Of a stretch of 64,000 bases of DNA, positions 4,711-37,743 are shown in pieces; the stretch's first letter is position 1; each line of letters starts with the position of its first letter. Position numbers and translations under genes: made by a program. The DNA is taken from NCBI GenBank assembly GCA_040389385.1, contig JAZKAA010000003.1, positions 39,295 through 103,294 on the forward strand, read 5' to 3'. Below the pieces are notes generated by a model that saw nothing but the letters and a program-made list of their open reading frames with translations, had not been told where the DNA came from and made no database searches. This DNA comes from Patescibacteria group bacterium (lineage in GTDB: Bacteria; Patescibacteriota; Minisyncoccia; Phycocordibacterales; SBAW01).

Positions 4711-6210
4711 ATGCCTCTATCCGGCGCACAGGAGATTACGGCGCTTATGCGCTCGCCCAGCTCGGCTGATAAGGAGCTGGTGGAAAAGGCCTACGCCTTT
4801 GCGATGGTCGCGCACAAGGACCATAAGCGCTACAGCGGCGAGCCATACATCGGCCACCTGGTAGAGACTGCCAAAGGCTTGGCCGGGCTCGGGCTGTCGG
4901 CCAAAACAGTCGCGGCCGGTTTATTGCACGACAGTATCGAGGACGCGGGCATTTTACCCGAGACATTGGAAAAGGAGTTCGGCAAAGAGATACGATTTTT
5001 GGTGGAGGGCGTAACCAAGCTCGGACACGTTAAGTACCACGGAGCGGAGCGCCATCGCGAGAGCATGCGCAAGCTGCTGGTGGCAACCGGCAAAGATGCG
5101 CGGGTTTTGATAATCAAGCTGATGGACCGCCTGCACAATATGCGCACGCTTGTGCATGTGCCCGAGGCCAAGCGTGCGCGCATTGCGCTGGAGACACTAG
5201 AAATATACGCAGCCATTGCCCACCGCTTGGGTATGGGGCTCGTCCGCCGCGAGTTGGAGGACCTTGCGTTTGAGTATGCTTTGCCGGCAGAGTTTAAAGA
5301 AACAAAAACGCTCCTCAACACTCAAAGCCGCACGACGCTCGAGCGTCTGGAAAAGATGGTCAAAACGCTGCGCAAAGAGTTTGGAAAAAATGGCATCACC
5401 AAGTTTCGCACCGACGCGCGGGTTAAGGGCCTGTACAGCTTGTACCGCAAACTGCAGCGCAAAGAGGGCGATATAGAAAAGATTTATGACATCGCGGCGC
5501 TGCGCATTATTGTGCCAAGCGTCACCGACTGCTACCGCGTCTTAGGATTGGTCAACAATATTTGGCAGCCGCTGCCGGGCAAGATTAAAGACTACATTGC
5601 CTTCCCCAAGCCCAACGGGTATCAATCGCTCCACACCACCGTCTTTACCGGCGACGGCGGCATTGTCGAGGTACAAATACGCACCGAGGAAATGCACGCC
5701 GAGGCCGAGCTTGGTATCGCCGCGCACGTCGGCTACAAAGAGGGCGCGCCCAAGTCGGGCAGCTTTGACTGGATAAAAAGTCTGGTGCCCGGCTTTAAGA
5801 GGGAGAAGGCCGCCGAGGACGCCGCGCACAAGCGCTACAGCGCGATAGGTGCGCCCGACTGGCTAGCCGACATAGGCGACGACGCACAAGAGCCCGATAT
5901 CGAGACGGCGCTTAAGACCGACCTCTTTAGCCGCCGGGTGTTTGTCTTTACCCCCACGGGCGATGTCGTCGACCTCCCCGCCGACTCGTCCCCTATCGAC
6001 TTTGCGTACGCGATACACTCCGACATCGGCGACCACGCGTTTGGTGCCAAGGTCAACGGCAAGATGGTCCACCTGGACACACATCTCCACAACGGCGACA
6101 TTGTCGAGATACAAACGCGAAAGACTGCCCACCCCTCAAAAAAATGGCTCGACTTTACCAAAACCACCATGGCGCGTCGCCACATCCGCAACGCGCTCGA
6201 GAAGCAGTAG
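4711..6210 (+). CDS. rel: bifunctional (p)ppGpp synthetase/hydrolase Rel/SpoT homolog (short form: HD + synthetase + TGS, no ACT)
   Basis: 499 aa; HD motif (HDSIED), RelA/SpoT synthetase region (RIIVPSVTDCYRVLG...), TGS-like C-terminus (GKMVHLDTHLHNGDIVEI). Confidence 0.88.
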   Translation: MPLSGAQEITALMRSPSSADKELVEKAYAFAMVAHKDHKRYSGEPYIGHLVETAKGLAGLGLSAKTVAAGLLHDSIEDAGILPETLEKEFGKEIRFLVEGVTKLGHVKYHGAERHRESMRKLLVATGKDARVLIIKLMDRLHNMRTLVHVPEAKRARIALETLEIYAAIAHRLGMGLVRRELEDLAFEYALPAEFKETKTLLNTQSRTTLERLEKMVKTLRKEFGKNGITKFRTDARVKGLYSLYRKLQRKEGDIEKIYDIAALRIIVPSVTDCYRVLGLVNNIWQPLPGKIKDYIAFPKPNGYQSLHTTVFTGDGGIVEVQIRTEEMHAEAELGIAAHVGYKEGAPKSGSFDWIKSLVPGFKREKAAEDAAHKRYSAIGAPDWLADIGDDAQEPDIETALKTDLFSRRVFVFTPTGDVVDLPADSSPIDFAYAIHSDIGDHAFGAKVNGKMVHLDTHLHNGDIVEIQTRKTAHPSKKWLDFTKTTMARRHIRNALEKQ

Positions 6211-6846
6211 CTACTCCGCCAGGTGCGCGTGGTCGTTCCACACCCATAGACGCCACGACTGAGCTCTTTGCTCGTCGTGTGTAAATAGAGATACGGACGT
6301 ATTGAGTGGGGTGTCTATGTTCCACGTTATACTCTGTATCTCCTGTGCTGTGGGCTTGAGATTAAAAATTACATGGGCCAGTAGAATTCGCACAAAAAAC
6401 CCGTGCGTGACAACTACTATGTGCTCTTCTTGCCGCTTGGCTAAAAAATCCAACGCCGCATTTGCGCGTGCCGTATGTTCGTCGTAACCCTCCTCATCTC
6501 CAAAGTGATACCCCGGACCATAATTAGAGCGGAGCGTTTTGTATGCGGCAACAGCTTCAGGGCTTGTTTCAGACATGCCTATAAACTGGGTCATACCCCG
6601 ACCTTCAGCAAATAATGCGTTGTACTCGGGCTGTATGCCTATTTTTTGTGTAATACATTCAGCGGTCTGCTTTGTCCGTAGAAAAGGACTGGCTATAAAT
6701 GCTTCAACCGGTAGTTTGGACACCCGATCGGCAATAATAGCCGCCTCCTTGAAACCCAGCTCAGTGAGAGGACTGTCCGGAGCTTGGTGTACTTTTTTAA
6801 CATTATCTTCCGATTGACCGTGGCGGACAAAGTAGACTGTCTTCAT
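6211..6846 (-). CDS. histidine phosphatase family (phosphoglycerate-mutase-like) protein
   Basis: 211 aa; N-terminal RHGQS catalytic motif, later VVVTHG. Confidence 0.75.
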   Translation of the reverse strand: MKTVYFVRHGQSEDNVKKVHQAPDSPLTELGFKEAAIIADRVSKLPVEAFIASPFLRTKQTAECITQKIGIQPEYNALFAEGRGMTQFIGMSETSPEAVAAYKTLRSNYGPGYHFGDEEGYDEHTARANAALDFLAKRQEEHIVVVTHGFFVRILLAHVIFNLKPTAQEIQSITWNIDTPLNTSVSLFTHDEQRAQSWRLWVWNDHAHLAE

Positions 6847-7820
6847 AGACTAAAACTTGACGGGTCGAAGGTATTTTCGTCCCTTTCTATTTCGTCTTTG
6901 CTGCGGTCATCCAGAGGTCCCGCAAAAGTTTCCGACGGAGGAGTTGGGGTCGTGTCTATCTCTCCGGAGGCGGAAAGCTTTTGCGGGACCTCTGCCCTAT
7001 TTGAGAGCTGCGCCAGTATCGACTTCAAATCCTCCTCGGCCATGTAGTCAATCACCAGCTTGCCTCCCTTTTCTTTTGGCTCGATGACGACGCGTGTACC
7101 AAGCACACTGGAGAGTTCGCGCTCCATCTCAAGCACATCGGGGGAGAAAAGATATTCCTTTTTGCGCACACGGTCTTGGGCAATGCGCCGCGCCATGTTC
7201 TCCGCGTCGCGCACCGTAACGCGCCGAATCAAAATCTCTTTAAACAGCACCAGCTGCTCCTCTTTGCGGTCGGCCAACATCAACAAAGGTCGCGTGTGGC
7301 CTTCGCTTATCTTGCCGTCTTGCAGCGCCTGCTGCATCTCTACCGGCAGCGCCAACAGGCGTATCGAGTTGCTGACATACTCCCTGCTCTTGCCCACTTT
7401 CTCAGCAATCTCGGTGTGTTTGAAATTAAATTGCTTGGCCAACTGGTCAAACGCCTTGGCGCGGTCTATCGGGTTGAGGTCCTCGCGCTGCAGGTTTTCT
7501 ATAATAGCGAGCTCCAGCTTGGTCTTGTCGTCGTCAAAAGCGGCACGGATAAGCACCGGCACCTCGCGTACGCCCGCCAACTTGGCCGCGCGCAGGCGGC
7601 GCTCGCCGGCAATCAGCTCGTACTCGGCGGCGATGCCGCCATCGGGCTTTTCTACCTCTTTGCGGCTGACGGTAAGCGGCTGGATAACGCCGTACTGTCG
7701 TATCGAGCGCGCAAGGTCGGCCAGCTTGGCCTCGTCAAACTCCCTGCGAGGTTGAAAGGGGTTAGGCGTGATTTTATCCACCTCGACCCAAAAAATCGCG
7801 TTATTGTAAAACTGCGACAT
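6843..7820 (-). CDS. parB: ParB/Spo0J-like partition/nucleoid-occlusion protein (start adjusted to MSQFYNN... ~7820)
   Basis: ParB N-domain motifs ITPNPFQPRR, IQPLTV, YELIAGERRLRAAKLAG; HTH; no parA adjacent in the window. Confidence 0.8.
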   Translation of the reverse strand: MSQFYNNAIFWVEVDKITPNPFQPRREFDEAKLADLARSIRQYGVIQPLTVSRKEVEKPDGGIAAEYELIAGERRLRAAKLAGVREVPVLIRAAFDDDKTKLELAIIENLQREDLNPIDRAKAFDQLAKQFNFKHTEIAEKVGKSREYVSNSIRLLALPVEMQQALQDGKISEGHTRPLLMLADRKEEQLVLFKEILIRRVTVRDAENMARRIAQDRVRKKEYLFSPDVLEMERELSSVLGTRVVIEPKEKGGKLVIDYMAEEDLKSILAQLSNRAEVPQKLSASGEIDTTPTPPSETFAGPLDDRSKDEIERDENTFDPSSFSL

Positions 7821-10406: not shown

Positions 10407-10427
10407 CTACGATATAAAAAGACCGCC

Positions 10428-10865
10428 TTAGTGGCGGTCGCAACACTGCTTCATCAAAGGTTTGAGTATCCCGACAACGCATTCGGGCAACTCATCCACA
10501 TATTTAGGCAAGCGGTGCTCGCTGACGGTCATGCCAAAGGTAACGATGCTCTCGGCATTGTCCGGAATCCAGAGGACCGAGCGCCGTACGACGCAACGGT
10601 CCGGACTGCGGTAGGTGAGCGTCACGAGTATCGAAATCCTGTCGTTTGATGCCTCGATGCTCACCCAGCGACCGACTTTGCAACCGGGATACTGCCCTTG
10701 TAATGCATCTATCAGCCTGAGCGGCAGTATCCGGTCATACAACTTCTGGACTTTTTCTTTGCTGTAGTCGCATGGCCAGCTCGACGGCATTTCACTCACA
10801 ACCTTGAAGAATGACTTTGTAGGCAAGCGGTCATCAGCCGCCTGTACATGCTGCGTGGCATGCAT
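10428..10865 (-). CDS. hypothetical protein (145 aa), last gene of the 13625->10428 minus-strand operon
   Basis: ORF only; Cys-rich ends (CDY...CCDRH); no recognisable domain. Confidence 0.4.
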   Translation of the reverse strand: MHATQHVQAADDRLPTKSFFKVVSEMPSSWPCDYSKEKVQKLYDRILPLRLIDALQGQYPGCKVGRWVSIEASNDRISILVTLTYRSPDRCVVRRSVLWIPDNAESIVTFGMTVSEHRLPKYVDELPECVVGILKPLMKQCCDRH

Positions 10866-11118
10866 TGCAGACCCTCCTCTCCTATTCTGTGCTAAAGGAT
10901 ACTACTTCTTGGCCTCTTTGTGCACGGTCGAGGCCCGGCACCAGTTGCAGAACTTTTTAAGCTCTATCTTGCGGGTAACCAGTTTTTTATTTTTGGAACT
11001 CCAGTAGTTAATGCGCTTGCATTTGGAGCACTGCAGTTTTATGAGTCGGTCTTGGGACATACGTAAAATGCGCCTTGGCGCGTATAGGGAATATACAGGA
11101 TTGCCCTATCCTTGGCAA

Positions 11119-11646
11119 CTAAGGAAGCTTGGTCGCCCCGGGGCAGAAGCTAAACCCAAGACTGGTATTGGCATATGCGGTGCTAACCCACGCCGGCGTG
11201 GTAACCATATATTTGAGGTGGCACATCTCGGTCTGGGTGATACCCAAGTGCTGCATCAAGTACTGCTCCGCCTGCATGCGGGCGCTGCCCAAAGGCTCCT
11301 GCATAAGTGCAATATTAAAGTAATCGGTCGCCGCAATATACTCGATAACATACGGGACCGTAGGCGACGTATTAACTGCTGGGTTGATATAATTTCCTAC
11401 AAAGTAATGCCCTTTGTTGTTAGAGTCCTCTTTTGTCTGAGGGTCCTTTAATATGTCCTTTCGGAGCGAGGTGCCGGTATCGGGATTTATCGCAGGCCTA
11501 CTGTCCGGCAAACCATTTTGTGATGTGGTGTCAGCAGGGGCAGCGGCGGGCGCACCAAGGCCGCCAAAAATAAACATCACGACAACTACCGCTGCAATAA
11601 GTACCGCGACAATAAGGCCAAGGACTATGTATTGGGTTTTATTCAT
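11119..11646 (-). CDS. hypothetical membrane-anchored extracytoplasmic protein (175 aa)
   Basis: N-terminal TM (IVLGLIVAVLIAAVVVVMFIFGG) then Pro/Ala/Thr linker and a globular domain; immediately downstream of the 655-aa secreted protein. Confidence 0.5.
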   Translation of the reverse strand: MNKTQYIVLGLIVAVLIAAVVVVMFIFGGLGAPAAAPADTTSQNGLPDSRPAINPDTGTSLRKDILKDPQTKEDSNNKGHYFVGNYINPAVNTSPTVPYVIEYIAATDYFNIALMQEPLGSARMQAEQYLMQHLGITQTEMCHLKYMVTTPAWVSTAYANTSLGFSFCPGATKLP

Positions 11647-11657
11647 ACGCGATCGAA

Positions 11658-13625
11658 TTAATTATTCGCATAATTTTTTACACATGTGCTTGCGGCCGCG
11701 TTCCATGGTTGACCATACGCGGTGCCTCCACATCCTGACGGGGAATTACATGTGCCCGTCCACGGCTGATATGGGTTGTTGGGGTTAGCATTCATCAGCG
11801 CTATGGCCACCTGCTGGTTGCACTGCACGTTATTTTGGGCGGCGGTTATATTTCCTCCAAAATCAGCCGCGGTGCACCCGGACGGAGCGTACTTGGTCCA
11901 ATTGCCTCGCGTAATTTGGAAAGCGCCGCACGCATTGGTATCACTACAGCCTACAGAGTTGCCGGACAGTTCAGTCACGGCTATACACGACATCACATTA
12001 GCTTGCGTTTGCGTCATTCCGAGTCCGGCAAGTGTACCAACATCGCAGTTGGTATTACCGGTCATACATTGAGCGTAACCTCTCGAGCCACCGCTGATCC
12101 CGCCGCCAGGAACCTCCTTCCAATTATCTTCGTTGTTGGGGTTGTTTGGATCAAAGGTGGTGCCGTTTTTTTGACACCAATATTCTTTACCGTCATTTGC
12201 ACATGCGTATCCCGCTCCGCAATTGCCGCAAATATCCCCGCCCACATAGCCTTGATTTTGTCCCGACGTGTATTGAGAGGTGTAGCCGCCCACTGCAACT
12301 CCCGGCTTGCTGGTATCCAAGCCGCCGTTTTGACCAAACACGGAGTTAAATAACTTGTCCAACGAGGTTGTGTTGCCGTTGGGGCCGAGGATTGTGCCGG
12401 CGCGCTGGGCCTTTGAGCAATCGAGCCGATTCCAACTCTGATACTGCTGCGGATTTAAAATAAATTTGAGCATAGTCTGGATAATGAGCCATGCGGAGAT
12501 AGCGATAAGAAAGCCCCAAAACGCAACGCGCAGAGCCGCCTTGGCGCGCTCAATATTGCTTAGGCTCGATGCGGAGGTAAAGTACAAAATGCCCGCCCAT
12601 GCAAACATCAATGCCGCAATGGGTATCGAAAATCCGATGACAAAGTTAATTATTTTTTGCCCGAGAGATGCAAAGTCGCATAGCTGACAATTGAGCCCTG
12701 TACACACTTGCGCGATGCCAGGGCCGGTGCTCCCGTTGGTTGTGGCCGGCGTAACGGTTGTCTGCTGGCCCGGGGTCACGGTGCCCGCGCCGGCCGAGCC
12801 CGGAGTGCCAACCGCGCCCGGGGCACCTACTGACCCGCCTGAGTCGACACCGCCCGGGTCGACAAAGCTCCCGTTGCTGGGGTTAAACGTGATGGGTACC
12901 GAGCACGTGCCCGTGCCGCCGGGGCCGGTAAAGGTGCCTGTATATGTCGTCTGCACATTTGAGGACAAGGAGGTCGGGGGCAATATCCCCTGCTGGCCGC
13001 TCGGGCCTACAGAGCCCAAGCCCGTGATGGTGCCGCCGGTCGCGTCGACACTCTGCCACTTGAGCGTGACGGTTTGGCCGGTGGTGTAAGTGCTTGGGGT
13101 GGCAAAAATTTGGCATGTCGGTTTTTGGACGCCGCTGTTTAGCGTCAGCTGCGCGCCAAATAGAGGCAAGGCGCCGTTGACCACTGCCGACGTGTTGATG
13201 GCGGTGATGTTTATGTCAAAAAACTGGCCCTGATTAGCCGTAAGGTTGCCCGCCACCGTCGCAAACACCACTACCGTGCGAGCCTCGCCTGAAGGGATAG
13301 AAAGCGACAGCGGCACGGTTGCGGTGCCTCCCGACAACGTCGCCGACCCTAGCGTATTGTTTTGAGTATCAACCGCAGTGAGCTTGGTAACAACGCTGTC
13401 GGGGGCTGAGCCCACACGCTGCACTGTAATGCTGCTGATAGTCGCGGCGCTGCTTGCAGTAAAGGTAACCGCCACCGCCGGCAAGTTGGCACCGGGCATA
13501 ACGGTAGCGTTGGGCGGCTGGCCGCCGTTAGGCGTACTGACGCTCACCAACGGCACCGTCTGTGCCATAGCAAGCATCGGGGCCAAATATGCAACGACCA
13601 ACACAAGGGCAAAGACCCGCTTCAT
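11658..13625 (-). CDS. large secreted mosaic protein: signal peptide + beta-rich repeat region + Cys-rich segment + embedded VirB2/TrbC-like two-TM 'pilin' module + C-terminal lysozyme-like (SLT/goose-type) domain
   Basis: 655 aa. Signal peptide MKRVFALVLVVAYLAPMLAMAQT. T/S/G-rich beta region. CTGLNCQLCDF followed by two hydrophobic helices (INFVIGFSIPIAALMFAWAGILYF ... VAFWGFLIAISAWLIIQTML) resembling the small paralogs at 26.1-27.5 kb. C-terminus has E-L-S ... GAFQI, reminiscent of SLT motifs ExS / GLMQ. Confidence 0.6.
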   Translation of the reverse strand: MKRVFALVLVVAYLAPMLAMAQTVPLVSVSTPNGGQPPNATVMPGANLPAVAVTFTASSAATISSITVQRVGSAPDSVVTKLTAVDTQNNTLGSATLSGGTATVPLSLSIPSGEARTVVVFATVAGNLTANQGQFFDINITAINTSAVVNGALPLFGAQLTLNSGVQKPTCQIFATPSTYTTGQTVTLKWQSVDATGGTITGLGSVGPSGQQGILPPTSLSSNVQTTYTGTFTGPGGTGTCSVPITFNPSNGSFVDPGGVDSGGSVGAPGAVGTPGSAGAGTVTPGQQTTVTPATTNGSTGPGIAQVCTGLNCQLCDFASLGQKIINFVIGFSIPIAALMFAWAGILYFTSASSLSNIERAKAALRVAFWGFLIAISAWLIIQTMLKFILNPQQYQSWNRLDCSKAQRAGTILGPNGNTTSLDKLFNSVFGQNGGLDTSKPGVAVGGYTSQYTSGQNQGYVGGDICGNCGAGYACANDGKEYWCQKNGTTFDPNNPNNEDNWKEVPGGGISGGSRGYAQCMTGNTNCDVGTLAGLGMTQTQANVMSCIAVTELSGNSVGCSDTNACGAFQITRGNWTKYAPSGCTAADFGGNITAAQNNVQCNQQVAIALMNANPNNPYQPWTGTCNSPSGCGGTAYGQPWNAAASTCVKNYANN

Positions 13626-13667: not shown

Positions 13668-13754
13668 TGGTGCGCCGGGTAGGATTCGAACCTACGTAGC
13701 CACAAGGGCGACTGGTTTACAGCCAGTTGCGATTGACCACTCCGCCACCGACGC
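13668..13754 (-). tRNA. tRNA-Tyr (anticodon GTA), type II long variable arm, CCA encoded
   Basis: Revcomp shows anticodon arm ACTGG-CTGTAAA-CCAGT, T-arm GTAGG-TTCGAAT-CCTAC, 3' ...GCGCACCA. Confidence 0.8.
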
Positions 13755-13838
13755 ATGGAGAACTGCTCTAGAATAGCGCAAATTGCCCAATTTTTAAAGT
13801 GTGGTACATTCCCATCAAACCTGTACACGGAGGGTGCA

Positions 13839-14162
13839 ATGTCCGATTATGCCGGCACTGACCTCCTGTTCTTCACGGAACCGAAGGTAACCAAATACCC
13901 TTTCCCAATCGAGGTCCCCGCCCTTGCCGGAAAATTTATGGTCCAGGGCTTGGCTATAGCTCCCAAAGAACACTATCCATACTACTTCTATCTGTATCCC
14001 TCCGGCATTTGGCGGGATGTTGCACAAACAGAGAACCAAACAGCATATTACGATACCGAAGCGTCAGCAAAAAGGAGCCTTCTGCAGGCAAGAATATCTC
14101 GACACCCAGAATGGGAGCGTGACGCGGACGAAAGCAAGATTATAATGAGCTACAGAGATTGA
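13839..14162 (+). CDS. hypothetical protein (start adjusted to MSDYAGTD with GGAGGG RBS)
   Basis: ORF with RBS; Tyr/Pro-rich (HYPYYFYLYPSGIWRD); no domain recognised. The track ORF started inside tRNA-Tyr. Confidence 0.4.
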   Translation: MSDYAGTDLLFFTEPKVTKYPFPIEVPALAGKFMVQGLAIAPKEHYPYYFYLYPSGIWRDVAQTENQTAYYDTEASAKRSLLQARISRHPEWERDADESKIIMSYRD

Positions 14163-26014: not shown

Positions 26015-26097
26015 ACGAAAGTAGCGCGCCGCTTTATTTCCCGACGCTCTGGTCGGGACCCCGACCGCTTTCGCGCGTCGGGGTTTATTTTTTTAAT
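26015..26097. terminator. triple-hairpin bidirectional terminator region; its last two hairpins (26040-26097) form a repeat shared with 58726-58770
   Basis: GGCGCGCTAC-gaaa-GTAGCGCGCC, then CCCGAC-gctctg-GTCGGG, then CCCCGAC-cgctttcgcgc-GTCGGGG followed by TTTATTTTTTT. Confidence 0.6.
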
Positions 26098-26344
26098 GCA
26101 GCGAATTGACCGTATTTTGTATCAGCGTCAGTATCCCAAACGACGCGACCATAATAAACATGCCCACCACGCCCCATAGCATGTGCTGCTTGCCGGTGTT
26201 GCTCTCTTTGCCGCCCACGTTGGCTGCCCACAAAAATTGCACTAACCCCCAGATAAACACCACAAGCGCGATCCCAAAAATAAGCAGTATCGCGGGGTTG
26301 ATAAGCACTCTCGTCACGTTGTTGACGAGTGTCGTAACGTCCAT
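26093..26344 (-). CDS. small two-TM protein, VirB2/TrbC-like pilin-family paralog 1 (83 aa)
   Basis: Pattern hydrophobic helix-FIWGLVQFLW-Gly/Lys loop-MLWGVVGMFIMVASFGILTLIQNT; array of four similar genes. Confidence 0.55.
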   Translation of the reverse strand: MDVTTLVNNVTRVLINPAILLIFGIALVVFIWGLVQFLWAANVGGKESNTGKQHMLWGVVGMFIMVASFGILTLIQNTVNSLH

Positions 26345-26353
26345 ACAGTTAGC

Positions 26354-26632
26354 TTAGCGTTGTGGGACCTGCGGGATAGCCACCGGCGCCACCGAGACGC
26401 CGAGCGTGTTTTGCATCAAGCGGATGATACCCCAGACCGAGACCATCACAAAGAGTGCCAAAAGGCCTGCGATCATGATATGTCTACCGCTTGCGGCATC
26501 TTTGCCTGCACCTTTAACGTACTTAAAGAGACCCCAGAAAAAGATAATGACTGTAAGCGCAATGACTACCGGGATAAGCCGGTTGAGTGTGTCCCCTACA
26601 AAAGCAATGAGCTGCGGGATGTTGGATAGCAT
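26354..26632 (-). CDS. small two-TM protein, VirB2/TrbC-like paralog 2 (92 aa)
   Basis: IIFFWGLFKYVKGAGKDAASGRHIMIAGLLALFVMVSVWGIIRLMQNT. Confidence 0.55.
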   Translation of the reverse strand: MLSNIPQLIAFVGDTLNRLIPVVIALTVIIFFWGLFKYVKGAGKDAASGRHIMIAGLLALFVMVSVWGIIRLMQNTLGVSVAPVAIPQVPQR

Positions 26633-26700
26633 AAAAATCTATAAATGGTTATGTTAGTAAGTGTAGCATCCTCTAAACGGGCAAGGCCGGGCTCTGTGGA

Positions 26701-27033
26701 TTACGGCTGCCACTGTCCATAAGAGCTCGGACTGGTAAAGTTGGACGCCGTACCCGCATTTGGGGTCCCGCAATTTGACGCGAGCAAAGAGTCGCAGGCT
26801 ATACGCAGTATCCCCCAGATAGAAAAGAGGATAAACAGCGCCACGAGGCTCCAGACCATTGTTTTCCGGCGGCTTCCTGCACTTTTGCCTCCGGACGATT
26901 GGTATACATACTGAAACGCCCCCCACATAAACAAGAGCACCGCGGCTGCAGCCAGCACCCCCACCAGCTGATTGAGTATCCCCACAAGGTAGGCAATGAC
27001 CGAGGCAAACGTGGCAGTGGATGAGGTGACCAT
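26701..27033 (-). CDS. small two-TM protein, VirB2/TrbC-like paralog 3 (110 aa)
   Basis: LLFMWGAFQYVYQSSGGKSAGSRRKTMVWSLVALFILFSIWGILRIA. Confidence 0.55.
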   Translation of the reverse strand: MVTSSTATFASVIAYLVGILNQLVGVLAAAAVLLFMWGAFQYVYQSSGGKSAGSRRKTMVWSLVALFILFSIWGILRIACDSLLASNCGTPNAGTASNFTSPSSYGQWQP

Positions 27034-27453
27034 TTAGTTGCAGGTGAGAATATTGGCGCCGCCTATGGCGTTGATGGTGCCGGCTATAATCATCGCCAAG
27101 ACCCATGCGCCCACAAACAGCGCTATGCCTATAACGGTGTAATAAAAGTTGCGGCGCGCCGCCTGTAAGTCTTTTGGCTTGCCTTGCGCCAGGACAAACC
27201 TAAAGCCCGACCAAATAATAAACAGTACCGCCACAGGGATCCCGACAGCGACAGCGCCCTCGAGGATCTTTTTGAGCAGGCCGCAGACGCTGGTTACCTG
27301 GAGCGGATTGTTGACCGAGTAGGAGCCGTTAGAGGGTGTCGGTTGAGGTGTATCAAATGTAGCGGCTCCCGCCAACAGCGGCGCAGAAATCAAAAACATA
27401 ACAACAAGCCCGATAATAAACCGCTGCCTATATAAAGCTAAAGCCATATGCAA
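27034..27453 (-). CDS. small signal-peptide + two-TM protein, VirB2/TrbC-like paralog 4 (139 aa)
   Basis: Signal peptide; VLFIIWSGFRFVLAQGKPKDLQAARRNFYYTVIGIALFVGAWVLAMIIAG; directly abuts paralog 3 (no gap). Confidence 0.55.
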   Translation of the reverse strand: MHMALALYRQRFIIGLVVMFLISAPLLAGAATFDTPQPTPSNGSYSVNNPLQVTSVCGLLKKILEGAVAVGIPVAVLFIIWSGFRFVLAQGKPKDLQAARRNFYYTVIGIALFVGAWVLAMIIAGTINAIGGANILTCN

Positions 27454-27455
27454 AA

Positions 27456-28760
27456 TTACTGTCCGCGGTTGGGCAAAAGCGCGTTAAATCCTTGTGCCGC
27501 CTCGCTCACCGCGCCCGCCGGGTCGTTGGCGCCCGATAGCACCGATTGTATCATGGAGGCAAACAGCTGGTCGGTCGTTACGGGGTCCGGGTCTACCCAG
27601 CCGTGCGCAAGCAAAGCTGATTGTAAAAACACGCTCGCCGCCGCGTTGGCGGAGGTGTCCGCCGCCACGTCACGCCGCCCGGAGGGCAAGCCGGTGGTAG
27701 TCATCCATGTCGTTGCGGCCGCAGGCGAGGTGAGCTTTTGCGCCACGGCGAGCGCTCCGTTGGGATTTTTAGCACTGCGCGGTATAGCAAGCCCGCTCAG
27801 TCTGCCAAACGTGCTCTGGCTGCTCGACCCCTTAAGCTGCGGCAGTACCGCCACACCCACCGAGAGGTTGGGGTTGCGTGCCAAGAGCGCGCGGTACTCG
27901 CTCGCAAACCCAAAGTATGTGGCCAAGTTGCCCGCGGCAAAGGCGTCTGTGGAGTTGGGCAGAGCCCTGTTCCAAGAGTAGGTGGCCTTGGTCGGATTGG
28001 CAAACTCGGTGTAAAAGCGCAATGCCGCGGCGGCCGGCGCCTCTGTCGCACCGTTGGGGACCGACCCAAAGGTCGATACAAGCGCGCCGCTCGCCGTGCG
28101 CCCCGTCAGCAACTCCCCCGCCTGGATAAACAGTGCCGAGAGTATCGCCTTGGCGTCCGTAATGTTGCCCCAGGTGCCAAGTGCTACGGCGCTGCGCGTA
28201 ACACCCTGCGAGCTGTCGAGTTTGCGCAGGATTGGCGATATGTTGAGCAGGTCGCTCCAGTATTGCGGCGGCGAGGCTTGGCCTGCGCTCACGTACAAAT
28301 CGCGGTTCCAGTACATCACCAGCGGGTCGACATCAAACGGCAACGCAAGCACCCCTTGCGGCGTCAAAAACAGCCGCCCCTCGTCTATATAATTGGCAAG
28401 AAACGTCGCCTGCGACACCGCGGCGTACGGCACGAGCGCCACCTTGTCGCCAAACTGGCCGATGTCCTCTTGCGACACGACAAACAGGTCGGGCGCGGTG
28501 CCGGCGGCCATGGCGTTGAGCAGGTCGGCGCTGTAGGTGGTCGCGCTTTTTTCTATATATGTGGTGTCACTGAGCGAGCTGTCGCTTTGCCGCAGACTAT
28601 CGAGCAGGTACTGCATCGTGGCCTGGTCCTCGGTGCCCCAGATAGTTACCGCGCCGACGCTTTGTCCGCCAAAGGCACCGCCAAATATCGCAAAAATGGC
28701 AACCCCCGCGATGAGGAAAAAGGCAAACAACCCTATGACAACCATTTGGAATCCCGACAT
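27456..28760 (-). CDS. extracellular solute-binding protein (ABC-transporter SBP family 1-like), N-terminally membrane-anchored; no permease or ATPase adjacent
   Basis: 434 aa; N-terminal TM then DLFVVSQEDIGQFGDKVALVPY..., typical of sugar-type SBPs. Confidence 0.65.
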   Translation of the reverse strand: MSGFQMVVIGLFAFFLIAGVAIFAIFGGAFGGQSVGAVTIWGTEDQATMQYLLDSLRQSDSSLSDTTYIEKSATTYSADLLNAMAAGTAPDLFVVSQEDIGQFGDKVALVPYAAVSQATFLANYIDEGRLFLTPQGVLALPFDVDPLVMYWNRDLYVSAGQASPPQYWSDLLNISPILRKLDSSQGVTRSAVALGTWGNITDAKAILSALFIQAGELLTGRTASGALVSTFGSVPNGATEAPAAAALRFYTEFANPTKATYSWNRALPNSTDAFAAGNLATYFGFASEYRALLARNPNLSVGVAVLPQLKGSSSQSTFGRLSGLAIPRSAKNPNGALAVAQKLTSPAAATTWMTTTGLPSGRRDVAADTSANAAASVFLQSALLAHGWVDPDPVTTDQLFASMIQSVLSGANDPAGAVSEAAQGFNALLPNRGQ

Positions 28761-35229: not shown

Positions 35230-37743
35230 TTACAAACAAACGAAAGATGCTATCGCGTCGCCTTCTCTCAATTTCATTACACGGACGCCTTGGGTACTGC
35301 GGGAAAGACTGGGGATTTCTTTCAATTCAGTTCTTATGACTTGGCCTTTTTTGGAGATTACGACGATTTCGTCTTCGCCTACGCCTTCCTCTTTAGAAAT
35401 TACTTGCGCGGCGATTAGGGGGCCGGTTTTGGCGGTCATGTTCATTGTCTTGATGCCCGAGCCGCCGCGGCCTTGAGTTTTGTACTCGGTAGTCTTGGTA
35501 GTTTTGCCGTAACCGTTGCGCGACACTACAAGCACCTCGTATTTGTCGCCTTCTTTGCCCTTGGGGATTACATCGGCGCCCACTATGGTGTCGCCGGCAC
35601 TCAACTTCATCCCGCGTACGCCACCGGCACTGCGGCCCATCGGGCGCACATCTCCCTCTTTAAACCGGATTGACTGCCCCTTGGCCGTGCTCAAAAAGAT
35701 TTCGTCACCCTTCTCTACCAACAACGCGGCAATCAACTCATCACCCCCGCCTCGCGTCGGCTCGCCTTTGCGAGTCGAGGCGGGCTTTTGCATCAACTTA
35801 ATTGCAATCAAGCCCGAGCGGCGTACATCATGGAACGCGGTTGCATCACACTTTTTGACAGTGCCCTGCTTGGTAATCATATATAGATACTTCTCGCCCT
35901 CTTTCTGCTTCTTGCGCATCGGGAGTATCGAGGTAATCCGCTCCTCGCCCGAGACGGAGAGGAAGTTAACTATAGGCCGGCCCTTTGTAGAGCGCTTGCC
36001 CTCGGGCAACTCGTACATCTTGAGCTGGTACGCCTTGCCCGCGTTAGTAAAGAAGAGCAGATCGCTGTGGGTCGAGGTGGTAAGGAACGTCGTTACAAAG
36101 TCCTCCTCCTTGGTATCAAGGTCAATAACCCCTACCCCGCCGCGCTTTTGCTTGCGGAACTCCTCGGGGTTGGTGCGCTTAACATAGCCGCCTTGGGTCA
36201 ACACCACCACCTGCTCCTCGTCGGGCACCAGGTCCTCGACGTTGATGATGCCTGCGGCACTCTTCATCACCGTGGTCTGGCGGTCGTCGGCAAACTTTTT
36301 GGCGACATCGGCAAACTCGGTCTTAACTACGCCGAGCATTTTCTTTTCGCTCTTAAGCAAAGCAGTCCACTCCTCTATAAGCGCCTGCACCTCGGCAAGC
36401 TCGTCCTCTACCTTTTTGCGCTCGAGGTTGGCAAGCCGGCTGAGGCGCATCTCCAAAATTGCTTTGGCCTGCAGCTCACTAAACTTAAACTTTTTAATCA
36501 AATTGATCTCAGCCTCGGCAACATCTTTAGATGCCCTGATGACTTTAATCACCTCGTCGATATGGTCGAGCGCTTTAGTAAGCCCGAGCAAAATATGCTC
36601 GCGCTCCTGTGCGCGCGTAAGGTCAAACTGCGTGCGGCGCTTGACCACCTCTTTGCGGTGCTTGATAAACTCTTCCAAAATCCCTTTGAGCGAGAGTGTT
36701 TGAGGCACCCCGTCTACAAGGACAACCATGTTGAAGTGGAACGTGTCCTCTAAAGCCGTGTGCTTGTACAAATAGTTGAGCACCTTTTGCGGATGTGCGC
36801 CCTGCTTGAGGTCTATAACAATACGGATATCGCTTGTGGACTCGTCGCGCAGCCCGCGGATGCCGTCTATCTTTTTATCGCGCACCAAGTCGGCGACACG
36901 GACAATAAGATCGGCTTTGTTGACGCGGTATGGCAGGCTCGTGATGATGATTTGGTAGTCGCCCTTTTTCCCTTCCACAGTCTCGGCGACGCCGCGCACA
37001 ACAAGCGGCCCGCGGCCGGTGGAGTACGCATGGAGCAAATCTTTTTTATTAAACGCAACCGCCCCGGTCGGAAAGTCGGGTCCGGACACAAACTGCATAA
37101 GGTCCTCTACAGTTGCGTCGGGTGTATCTATCAAGTGCGCGAGCGCCTGCATCAACTCGCCCAAGTGGTGCGGCGGGATGTTGGTCGCCATACCGACAGC
37201 AATGCCGAGCGTGCCGTTGAGCAAAATGTTGGGCACGGTAGATGGGAGCACCTCGGGCTCTTTGAGCGTGCCGTCGTAGTTGGGGCGCCAGTTGACCGTA
37301 TCCTTTTCCAAATCCTGCAGGAGCTGCGTGGCCATCGTAGACATCTTGGCCTCGGTGTAGCGCATGGCTGCCGCACTATCGCCGTCTATCGAGCCAAAGT
37401 TGCCCTGCCCTACCACCAACGGGTAGCGCATCGCAAAAAGCTGCGTCATCTTGACCATCGCCTCGTACACGGCACTGTCGCCATGTGGATGGTACTTGCC
37501 GAGCACGTCGCCCACCACGAGCGCGCTTTTGCGGAAGCGCGACTGTGGTGTGAGCCCCAGCCGGTGCATGGTGTAGAGGATGCGGCGGTGCACGGGCTTG
37601 AGCCCGTCGCGCACATCGGGCAGCGCGCGCGATGTGATAACCGACATGGCGTAGTCGAGGTACGCCTCGCGCATCTCGGTTGAGATGTTACGTCCTATCG
37701 TTTTGCCGCCGTTGTGGGGCTTTTTATCTTCCATGTCTGCCAT
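35230..37743 (-). CDS. gyrA: DNA gyrase subunit A
   Basis: 837 aa; [19 protein letters not shown], active-site Tyr region, C-terminal beta-pinwheel repeats. Confidence 0.95.

Follow-up and report, generated by a model that had tools for sequence, protein, structure and literature searches.

A stretch of 64,000 nucleotides from a Patescibacteria group bacterium (assembly GCA_040389385.1, contig JAZKAA010000003.1, positions 39,295 to 103,294), called the window below, raises the question of what a secreted protein that joins a pilin-type membrane hairpin to a lysozyme-like domain might do, and what the small gene directly downstream might have to do with it. An earlier note on this DNA had singled out the protein, ORF655 (named for its open reading frame [ORF] of 655 amino acids [aa]), as an unusual fusion of adhesin-like, pilin-like, and peptidoglycan-cleaving parts encoded in an operon with two unknowns. 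ORF655 is deposited as MES2202859.1, with the record name merely 'pilin', and the product of the adjacent gene, ORF175, as MES2202858.1, with the record name 'hypothetical protein'. Comparison with related loci showed that the C-terminal domain of the fusion and the gene that follows it are exchanged as one cassette, in a polymorphic locus whose place between clpB and rpmG is constant across a clade of Paceibacteria (Parcubacteria). On balance, and with modest confidence, ORF655 is read here as a polymorphic peptidoglycan hydrolase that is tethered to the surface or to a pilus and has a cognate partner, whose likeliest role is that of an inhibitor or immunity protein. The earlier observation is confirmed and its architectural interpretation is supported with corrections; the function is what we infer.

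Four genes run in one direction at this locus:

11658-13625, minus strand: ORF655 (655 aa), from the ORF list
11119-11646, minus strand: ORF175 (175 aa), from the ORF list
10902-11060, minus strand: rpmG, ribosomal protein L33 (Pfam E 6e-17, NCBIfam E 1.6e-17)
10428-10865, minus strand: ORF145 (145 aa), from the ORF list

The ORFs of 655, 175, and 145 aa had been placed correctly before, all on the minus strand. What had been overlooked was rpmG, and of the two supposed unknowns ORF175 turned out to be a conserved, type-matched partner and ORF145 an orphan.

Joint exchange of the C-terminal domain and the downstream gene

ORF655 consists, in this order, of a signal peptide, two Ig-like domains, a linker, a Cys motif, the hairpin, a second linker, and the lysozyme-like domain:

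13563..13625, minus strand: Sec-type signal peptide, aa 1-21, by inspection, with predicted cleavage after AMA
13125..13562, minus strand: Ig-like beta-sandwich domain 1, aa 22-167, all-beta in an AlphaFold2 (AF2) model
12882..13124, minus strand: Ig-like domain 2, aa 168-248, from conserved columns, AF2 model, and fold search
12711..12881, minus strand: linker 1, aa 249-305, ~55 aa of G/S/T/P-rich low-complexity sequence
12402..12710, minus strand: Cys motif, VirB2/TrbC-like hairpin, and W398...C403...R408, aa 306-408, from Pfam PF18895 and invariant columns
12084..12401, minus strand: linker 2, aa 409-514, variable in the alignment, with a Cys-containing segment
11661..12083, minus strand: Cys-rich lysozyme-like domain 'type A', aa 515-655, with the Glu552 codon at 11970-11972, followed by G567-A-F-Q570-I

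Related loci from genomes and metagenomes were pooled (about 100 loci, with 85 unique fusion genes), and the C-terminal 150 aa of the fusions and, apart from them, the downstream ORFs were clustered by single-linkage BLAST. De-duplication was by identical tails alone, and the counts may include close relatives. The fusion, previously called unusual, is indeed rare globally; within the clade it is recurrent. The gene order clpB, fusion gene, rpmG, miaA was found in essentially every related locus with enough flank, and tblastn confirmed the slot across 39 GTDB species representatives labeled Adlerbacteria, Nomurabacteria, Kaiserbacteria, and Paceibacterota. Its conserved downstream border is rpmG, which lies 3' of the fusion gene in nearly all related loci. 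Identical clpB-fusion-rpmG-miaA synteny was also seen in loci titled 'uncultured Candidatus Saccharibacteria' (L012, L018, L019, L023, L031, and others), where ClpB is 78-83% identical to that of the window; these titles may be generic labels.

The C terminus varied within this slot. Pfam matches at E <= 0.01 among 34 aligned homologs assigned nine to the lysozyme-like type (seen as weak Destabilase matches), eight to SLT (best E 1e-14, in proteins with a C-domain different from that of ORF655), five to CHAP, five to the Rpf-like 'Transglycosylas' family, two to SLT_3, and one to NlpC/P60. Further tails with H-x6-D...H-x-H were recognized by eye, from the motif alone, as M15/LAS-peptidase-like. 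At least five C-domain types thus occupy the clpB-rpmG slot, and each of three was combined with its own family of downstream genes:

Lysozyme-like (types A and B) with partner P0, the ORF175 family: 23 loci
SLT with partner P1: 15 loci
CHAP with partner P2: 13 loci
Any cross-combination of C-domain type and partner: 0 loci

The partner family was concordant with the hydrolase type in all 51 paired loci. That the pairing is a mere trace of three old orthologous lineages was considered and rejected, because relatedness of the backbone (Ig domain plus hairpin) is nearly independent of cassette type. The nearest backbone neighbor had the same C-terminal type in 29 of 70 cases, compared to 35% by chance, and there are pairs of loci with backbones 80-92% identical in which both the C-domain and the partner differ. 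The exchange is visible at the DNA level in a CHAP-type locus (L009) and an SLT-type locus (L010), whose homology runs through clpB and covers the 5' two-thirds of the fusion gene; it is lost exactly across the C-domain and the partner gene and is back at rpmG. The blastn breakpoint lies ~30 aa beyond the W..C..R motif, inside linker 2. Five loci (L033, L036, L039, L042, and L044, at ~5000-7000 in each) have two tandem pilin-hydrolase genes in the clpB-rpmG slot, the first M15/LAS-like by motif and the second SLT-type or lysozyme-like, usually without a partner.

Since the C terminus and the downstream gene are exchanged jointly, the lysozyme-like domain is taken to have ORF175 as its cognate partner. 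ORF175 has an N-terminal transmembrane (TM) anchor, a linker, and an extracytoplasmic domain of ~100 aa with a conserved pair of cysteines (C142/C168), and shares 50% identity with its positional counterpart in locus L001. The P0 family has 48 members, all unnamed, and its invariant residues include Y103, E117, P118, and R123. P0, P1, and P2 are unrelated to one another, and in each a TM segment at the N terminus is accompanied by a domain that faces outward. Nothing significant was found for ORF175 in Pfam or NCBIfam, a Pfam scan of seven partner proteins was likewise empty, and PDB profile searches with P0 and P1 gave best E values of 0.9 and 0.01, to unrelated proteins. That ORF175 might be an inhibitor or immunity protein for the lysozyme-like domain is put forward tentatively, the balance tipping slightly the other way.

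The lysozyme-like domain, the pilin hairpin, and the N-terminal arm

The C-terminal domain contains an ELS...GAFQI motif that had been likened to the catalytic motifs of family-1 lytic transglycosylases (SLT). The motif is real. An exhaustive HMMER profile search of 1.84 billion representatives gave a C-domain family of 153 clusters; among its members E552 and G567 are conserved in 133 of 133, and Q570 in 131 of 133. Alignment by hhalign with the SLT-type domains of the orthologs had a probability of 92.7% (E 4e-7) and placed E552 on the Glu of N-E-S-S-G and GAFQI on GxMQV. A PDB profile search reached insect c-type lysozymes (E 0.005), with E552 on the catalytic Glu. The lysozyme-like fold and the alignment of catalytic motifs therefore stand. 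Membership in the Pfam SLT family does not: ORF655 had no match to it at E <= 1, and the weak matches were to i-type and c-type lysozymes, with Destabilase at 19.8 bits versus a cutoff of 26.2. Membership among the c-type lysozymes was rejected because, while the Glu aligns, an equivalent of Asp52 in hen egg-white lysozyme (HEWL) is lacking; Ala or Pro occupies the aligned position, and apart from E552 no acidic residue reaches 50% conservation among the 133 family members. With neither an SLT match nor a Glu/Asp pair, the C-domain is a new lysozyme-like family, distinct from Pfam SLT and GH22, and its relation to known lysozymes is distant. Its residues would fit the single-carboxylate chemistry of a lytic transglycosylase or g-type lysozyme.

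Compared with the lysozyme superfamily as a whole (SLT/GH23, GH22, and i-type destabilase), the C-domain shares the fold and the helix-end Glu in E-S/N-x-G followed by G-x-[FM]-Q-[IV], and it is Cys-rich like the c-type and i-type enzymes. It differs in having no Pfam SLT/Lys match, in lacking the Asp52 equivalent, in its own pattern of conserved cysteines, and in occurring almost exclusively C-terminal to a pilin hairpin. The hairpin lies upstream in 107 of the 142 clusters outside the query set, and the remainder are mostly N-terminally truncated fragments. The weak tail of the search includes (P0152, P0162, P0163, and P0165; E 1e-12 to 1e-6) animal multi-domain c-type lysozymes with KIFERCEL-type N termini, which hints at a sequence-level link between the patescibacterial family and GH22. 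In a word-indexed search the isolated 149-aa C-domain drew 33 candidates and no match, not even its parent, whereas 36 homologs came up with the full-length query; a word index seems to miss queries that are short and Cys-rich. The peptidoglycan-hydrolase reading is independently supported by the orthologs in the same slot, which carry SLT, CHAP, or Rpf-like domains instead. The domain is probably active on peptidoglycan.

The hairpin of ORF655 consists of TM1 (~aa 324-349), the basic loop TSASSLSNIERAKAALRVA, and TM2 (~aa 369-392). A leader followed by two hydrophobic helices and, between them, a short basic loop is what a VirB2/TrbC pilin (PF18895, PF04956) has, and the segment is colinear with small pilin paralogs encoded in an array elsewhere in the window:

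26093..27453, minus strand: four small VirB2-like pilin paralogs of 83, 92, 110, and 139 aa, from Pfam PF18895, hhalign, and hidden Markov model (HMM) searches

The match of ORF655 to the Pfam family T4SS_pilin (PF18895; aa 323-383, E 5e-3) is sub-threshold, at 17.2 bits versus a cutoff of 26.6, while 32 of the 34 homologs match at E <= 0.01 (best E 1.1e-12). In the array, the 139-aa paralog scores above the gathering score (E 4.6e-9, 36.7 bits) and the other three have E values of 2e-4 to 8e-3. The earlier note had proposed that the two-helix module is shared with this array, and direct comparison bore this out: hhalign of the ORF655 hairpin with the four small paralogs gave a probability of 95.3% (E 2e-8). 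Furthermore, an HMM of the fusion family, searched against 692 six-frame segments of the window, matched ORF655 and the four array ORFs and nothing else, and the reverse search with an HMM of the array paralogs was equally exclusive. Plain hydrophobicity therefore does not explain the likeness. Judged from these profiles, the hairpin has a specific kinship with the small pilin paralogs and is not a generic signal anchor, and the array represents its free-standing form. Neither of the two outcomes that the earlier note had named as refuting its reading was observed.

The array paralogs are outside any type IV secretion system (T4SS) cluster; the gene immediately upstream of them encodes a solute-binding protein (27456-28760, SBP_bac_8). 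The 139-aa paralog alone among the four has a signal peptide; it has one Cys ahead of TM1 and one near its C terminus.

The Cys cluster ahead of the hairpin, also pointed out before, is conserved: C308, C313, and C316, together with W398, C403, and R408 after the hairpin, are invariant across the ORF655 homologs. Hairpins of this kind are oriented by the positive-inside rule and by the topology of VirB2. On that basis both long arms of ORF655 face outward, with which the many conserved cysteines are consistent, and the quartet C308, C313, C316, and C403 flanks the hairpin on the outward side. TrbC and the VirB2 T-pilins are cyclized head to tail; speculatively, the flanking cysteines might form a disulfide staple that mimics this cyclization. 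Beyond the hairpin, the basic loop, the Sec signal, and profile-level homology the likeness to VirB2/TrbC pilins ends. Known pilins have ~70-140 aa, whereas the hairpin of ORF655 stands between an N-terminal arm of ~300 aa and an enzymatic C-terminal arm of ~250 aa, and ORF655 further differs in its invariant Cys quartet and its location outside a T4SS cluster.

The N-terminal arm begins with the signal peptide MKRVFALVLVVAYLAPMLAMA, followed by QT, recognized by inspection as the earlier note had done; A21 is invariant in the 34 homologs and the A-x-A-Q context is conserved. The ~300 aa of beta-strand repeats described earlier do have Ig-like character. They are not repeats: the region consists of two distinct Ig-like domains and the linker of ~55 aa, which varies in sequence and length across the alignment. 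An AF2 model of aa 22-248 (ma22c77e152fb) has two beta-sandwiches with a predicted local distance difference test (pLDDT) score of 93.7, and Foldseek matched the region to generic tandem Ig-like ectodomains in PDB (E ~1e-5). Domain 1 is restricted to longer family members. Domain 2 is the near-universal N-terminal domain of the family and is bracketed by conserved C171 and C241; C171, W190, S192, G230, F232, G234, G237, and C241 are conserved in at least 90% of the homologs. Domain 2 also occurs twice in tandem in P0033, an unrelated 420-aa protein with FG-GAP/VCBS repeats, and is therefore a mobile extracellular module that is not specific to the fusion.

Flanking genes and expression signals

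Three further features bear on the expression of the locus:

13668..13754, minus strand: tRNA-Tyr(GTA), from ARAGORN, 42 nt upstream of the ORF655 start
11118..11090, minus strand: promoter-like site ahead of rpmG
10421..10439, minus strand: intrinsic-terminator-like hairpin and T-run, with a 7-bp stem of 6 GC pairs followed by TTTTT

The tRNA and ORF655 may share a transcript. Only 11 nt separate the stop codon of ORF655 from the start of ORF175, and the terminator after ORF145, the sole strong one of the region, closes the unit ORF655-ORF175-rpmG-ORF145. A strong Shine-Dalgarno sequence, GGAGAGGAGG, stands 7 nt ahead of the ORF145 start. Across 49 related loci ORF145 had no homolog, and it had no significant Pfam or NCBIfam match. 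It is probably a real orphan gene outside the conserved cassette, and its ribosome-binding site and the terminator point to expression. The rpmG-miaA gap of relatives contains other, unrelated ORFs, such as one with a weak Peptidase_M48 match in L005.

On the other side of the fusion gene, the space from tRNA-Tyr to clpB contains a 135-aa ORF on the plus strand (13755-14162) for which the about 100 related loci have no homolog. Relatives have other small ORFs of 89-124 aa between clpB and the fusion gene, mostly on the opposite strand, and this intergenic region may be a second variable spot. Both ORF145 and the 135-aa ORF were dropped as members of the system for want of homologs in the related loci.

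The window as a whole is a housekeeping stretch, with topA, relA/spoT, infB, clpB, leuS, lepA, murJ, ftsA, ftsZ, prs, and 13 tRNAs; an ORF at 35230-37743 is gyrA-like judging by its translation alone. An integrative and conjugative element, plasmid, or other mobile-element context was considered and rejected, the neighbors everywhere being clpB, infB, rbfA, rpmG, miaA, relA, and topA. MurJ, FtsZ, and FtsA are encoded in the window, and the producer therefore makes peptidoglycan.

Proposed function and its alternatives

In the proposed mechanism, ORF655 would be exported by Sec and its VirB2/TrbC-type hairpin inserted in the membrane, with the short basic loop towards the cytoplasm and both arms towards the outside. 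The N-terminal arm would present two Ig-like domains and the C-terminal arm a Cys-rich lysozyme-like glycosidase on a tether of ~100 aa, which would cleave glycan strands with Glu552 as its single catalytic carboxylate. ORF175, anchored in the membrane and facing outward, would bind this domain specifically, restrain it during its stay in the membrane pool, and keep the tethered enzyme off the producer's wall. ORF655 could then be a minor or decorated subunit of a T4SS-type pilus made from the small paralogs, or the hairpin could merely anchor a long-reach surface enzyme; incorporation into a pilus is doubtful. The target would most plausibly be the wall of a host or neighbor cell colonized by these epibionts, and whether the wall that is cut is foreign or the producer's own we consider evenly balanced.

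The arrangement resembles that of polymorphic toxins (CdiA-CT/CdiI, Rhs, LXG/T7SS TelC-TipC, and, from type VI secretion, the wall-degrading effector pairs Tae/Tai and Tge/Tgi), in which a conserved N terminus is followed by a variable enzymatic C terminus and directly downstream by a type-specific gene, the two being replaced jointly with a junction soon after a conserved motif. Immunity proteins of monoderms against wall-targeting toxins are extracytoplasmic and membrane anchored, as are the partners here. There are differences as well. The N-terminal module is a T4SS-type pilin hairpin; the variable domains are all peptidoglycan hydrolases, with no nucleases, deaminases, or similar; and there is one fixed slot, in which no orphan cassette arrays were seen and several cassette types lack a partner. 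A complete polymorphic effector-immunity system, with a T4SS-type pilin as the delivery module, interchangeable hydrolases that would be shown on a VirB2-like pilus or passed into it and would breach the wall of a host or competitor, and a co-inherited, membrane-anchored immunity protein that would guard the producer, is a tentative suggestion that we would not expect to hold in full.

Several observations weigh against a tethered polymorphic hydrolase with a cognate partner. No VirB4 or VirB6 was found among the large ORFs of the window, and no T4SS ATPase or channel gene within ~8 kb in the related loci for which genes are listed, which leaves the hairpin as the one link to a pilus machine. 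Packing into a VirB2-type filament may be difficult for a protein with arms of ~300 and ~250 aa at its two ends. A partner is lacking downstream of eight SLT-type and two lysozyme-like genes, M15-like genes have either a second fusion gene or nothing after them, and the divergent ortholog P0014 lacks a partner gene; a universal requirement for immunity therefore fails. The Pfam matches of ORF655 itself are below gathering scores. The AF2 model of the C-domain, a check that the earlier note had proposed, was built from a shallow alignment of 11 sequences; it reached a pLDDT of 83.8 and a predicted template modeling score of 0.79, and its top Foldseek matches in PDB were all lysozyme-like, yet none was significant (best E 1.2). 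A fixed position among housekeeping genes suits a core cell-wall function as well as it suits a weapon, and the hosts of the lineage may lack peptidoglycan.

One such core function would be that of a VirB1 surrogate, in which ORF655 is the missing hole-punching hydrolase of the patescibacterial T4SS, guided by its hairpin to the machine or to the base of the pilus, where it would open the producer's own wall to let the pilus through, with ORF175 as a type-specific regulator or activator. A 2025 survey reported that most Patescibacteria with VirB2-like pilins lack VirB1 (PMC12102498). The hairpin is related to the pilin array, and the gene's place in the core genome, as well as its near-universal occurrence in the clade, suggests a housekeeping role. 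VirB1-type proteins of monoderms (PrgK of pCF10, TraG of pIP501, and CwlT of ICEBs1) are likewise membrane-anchored, outward-facing hydrolases that combine SLT or lysozyme-like domains with CHAP or NlpC/P60 domains or other hydrolases, the same families as in this slot, and they offer a conceptual link to T4SS. However, they have an ordinary TM or signal anchor, often two catalytic domains, and a gene inside a transfer operon, without a matched downstream partner or cassette polymorphism. The ORF655 family has one catalytic domain, a pilin hairpin as anchor, co-swapped partners, and a housekeeping locus that, in the genomes examined, stands between clpB and rpmG-miaA and not in a T4SS cluster; neither the window nor the about 100 related loci have a T4SS gene linked to it. 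Local hole-punching needs neither two Ig-like domains nor long tethers. Moreover, the rapid exchange of catalytic type and matched partner between nearly identical backbones suggests diversifying selection, and we know of no such exchange in VirB1-type enzymes. We regard a VirB1 surrogate as unlikely.

Even less likely, in our judgment, is a housekeeping autolysin, a tethered enzyme of wall remodeling or daughter-cell separation for which the pilin-derived hairpin would be a mere anchor and the partner a cognate regulator, comparable to the EnvC/NlpD-type control of amidases. The slot fixed among clpB, rpmG, miaA, and infB, the apparent tolerance of any peptidoglycan-cleaving chemistry at this position, the peptidoglycan synthesis and division genes of the producer, and the dispensability of the partner for some cassettes would all suit such an enzyme. 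A generic anchor would not be expected to have a lysozyme-like family nearly confined to it (107 of 142 clusters), and the invariant Cys motif and W..C..R around the hairpin argue for a specific function of this module. Turnover of cassettes among close relatives would also be unusual for a division autolysin.

Very improbable is a non-catalytic glycan-binding C-domain, in the manner of alpha-lactalbumin and some Rpf-like proteins, in an adhesin with ORF175 as an unrelated neighbor: the weak similarity to characterized lysozymes (Foldseek E > 1; PDB profile E 0.005), the missing second carboxylate, and the Ig-like domains would suit it, but the Glu is conserved in 133 of 133 members and coincides with the catalytic Glu of SLT, G567 and Q570 occupy catalytic-motif positions, orthologs fill the position with enzymes of quite unlike fold whose one common trait is the cleavage of peptidoglycan (CHAP and SLT by Pfam, and M15-like by motif), and partner pairing in 51 of 51 loci rules out an unrelated neighbor.

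VirB2-like pilin arrays have been described in 383 patescibacterial assemblies (PMC12102498), and the T4SS pilin arrays of Patescibacteria and their essentiality have been described as well (PMC12102498, PMC10633639, PMC12857230), while the role of the T4SS in these bacteria has been called 'completely unknown' (PMC11665869). A full-text literature search of incomplete coverage found no mention of pilin-hydrolase fusions, of the lysozyme-like family, or of cassette-partner exchange, and no earlier description was found of a polymorphic effector-partner locus in which a lysozyme-superfamily hydrolase is combined with a pilin of the T4SS type. The locus unites VirB2-like pilins, peptidoglycan hydrolases, and toxin-style cassette exchange, which were previously studied separately. 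It adds a new lysozyme-like family, in which Glu552 stands out as the catalytic residue, and three new families of putative hydrolase-specific inhibitors.

Classical polymorphic toxins appear not to use type III secretion systems and T4SS (Zhang et al. 2012, PMC3482391). If the effector-immunity system with a pilin as its delivery module is real, it would represent the first class of polymorphic toxins with a tie to T4SS pilins and would provide a concrete mechanism by which these epibionts open their hosts. ORF655 is a candidate for the 'missing VirB1' or for an effector that cuts host walls, and the locus bears on how Patescibacteria breach and feed on hosts and on the role of their essential T4SS and pilin arrays. 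A fixed clpB-rpmG slot with rapid turnover of its contents could mark the evolution of host range or of conflict in this lineage.

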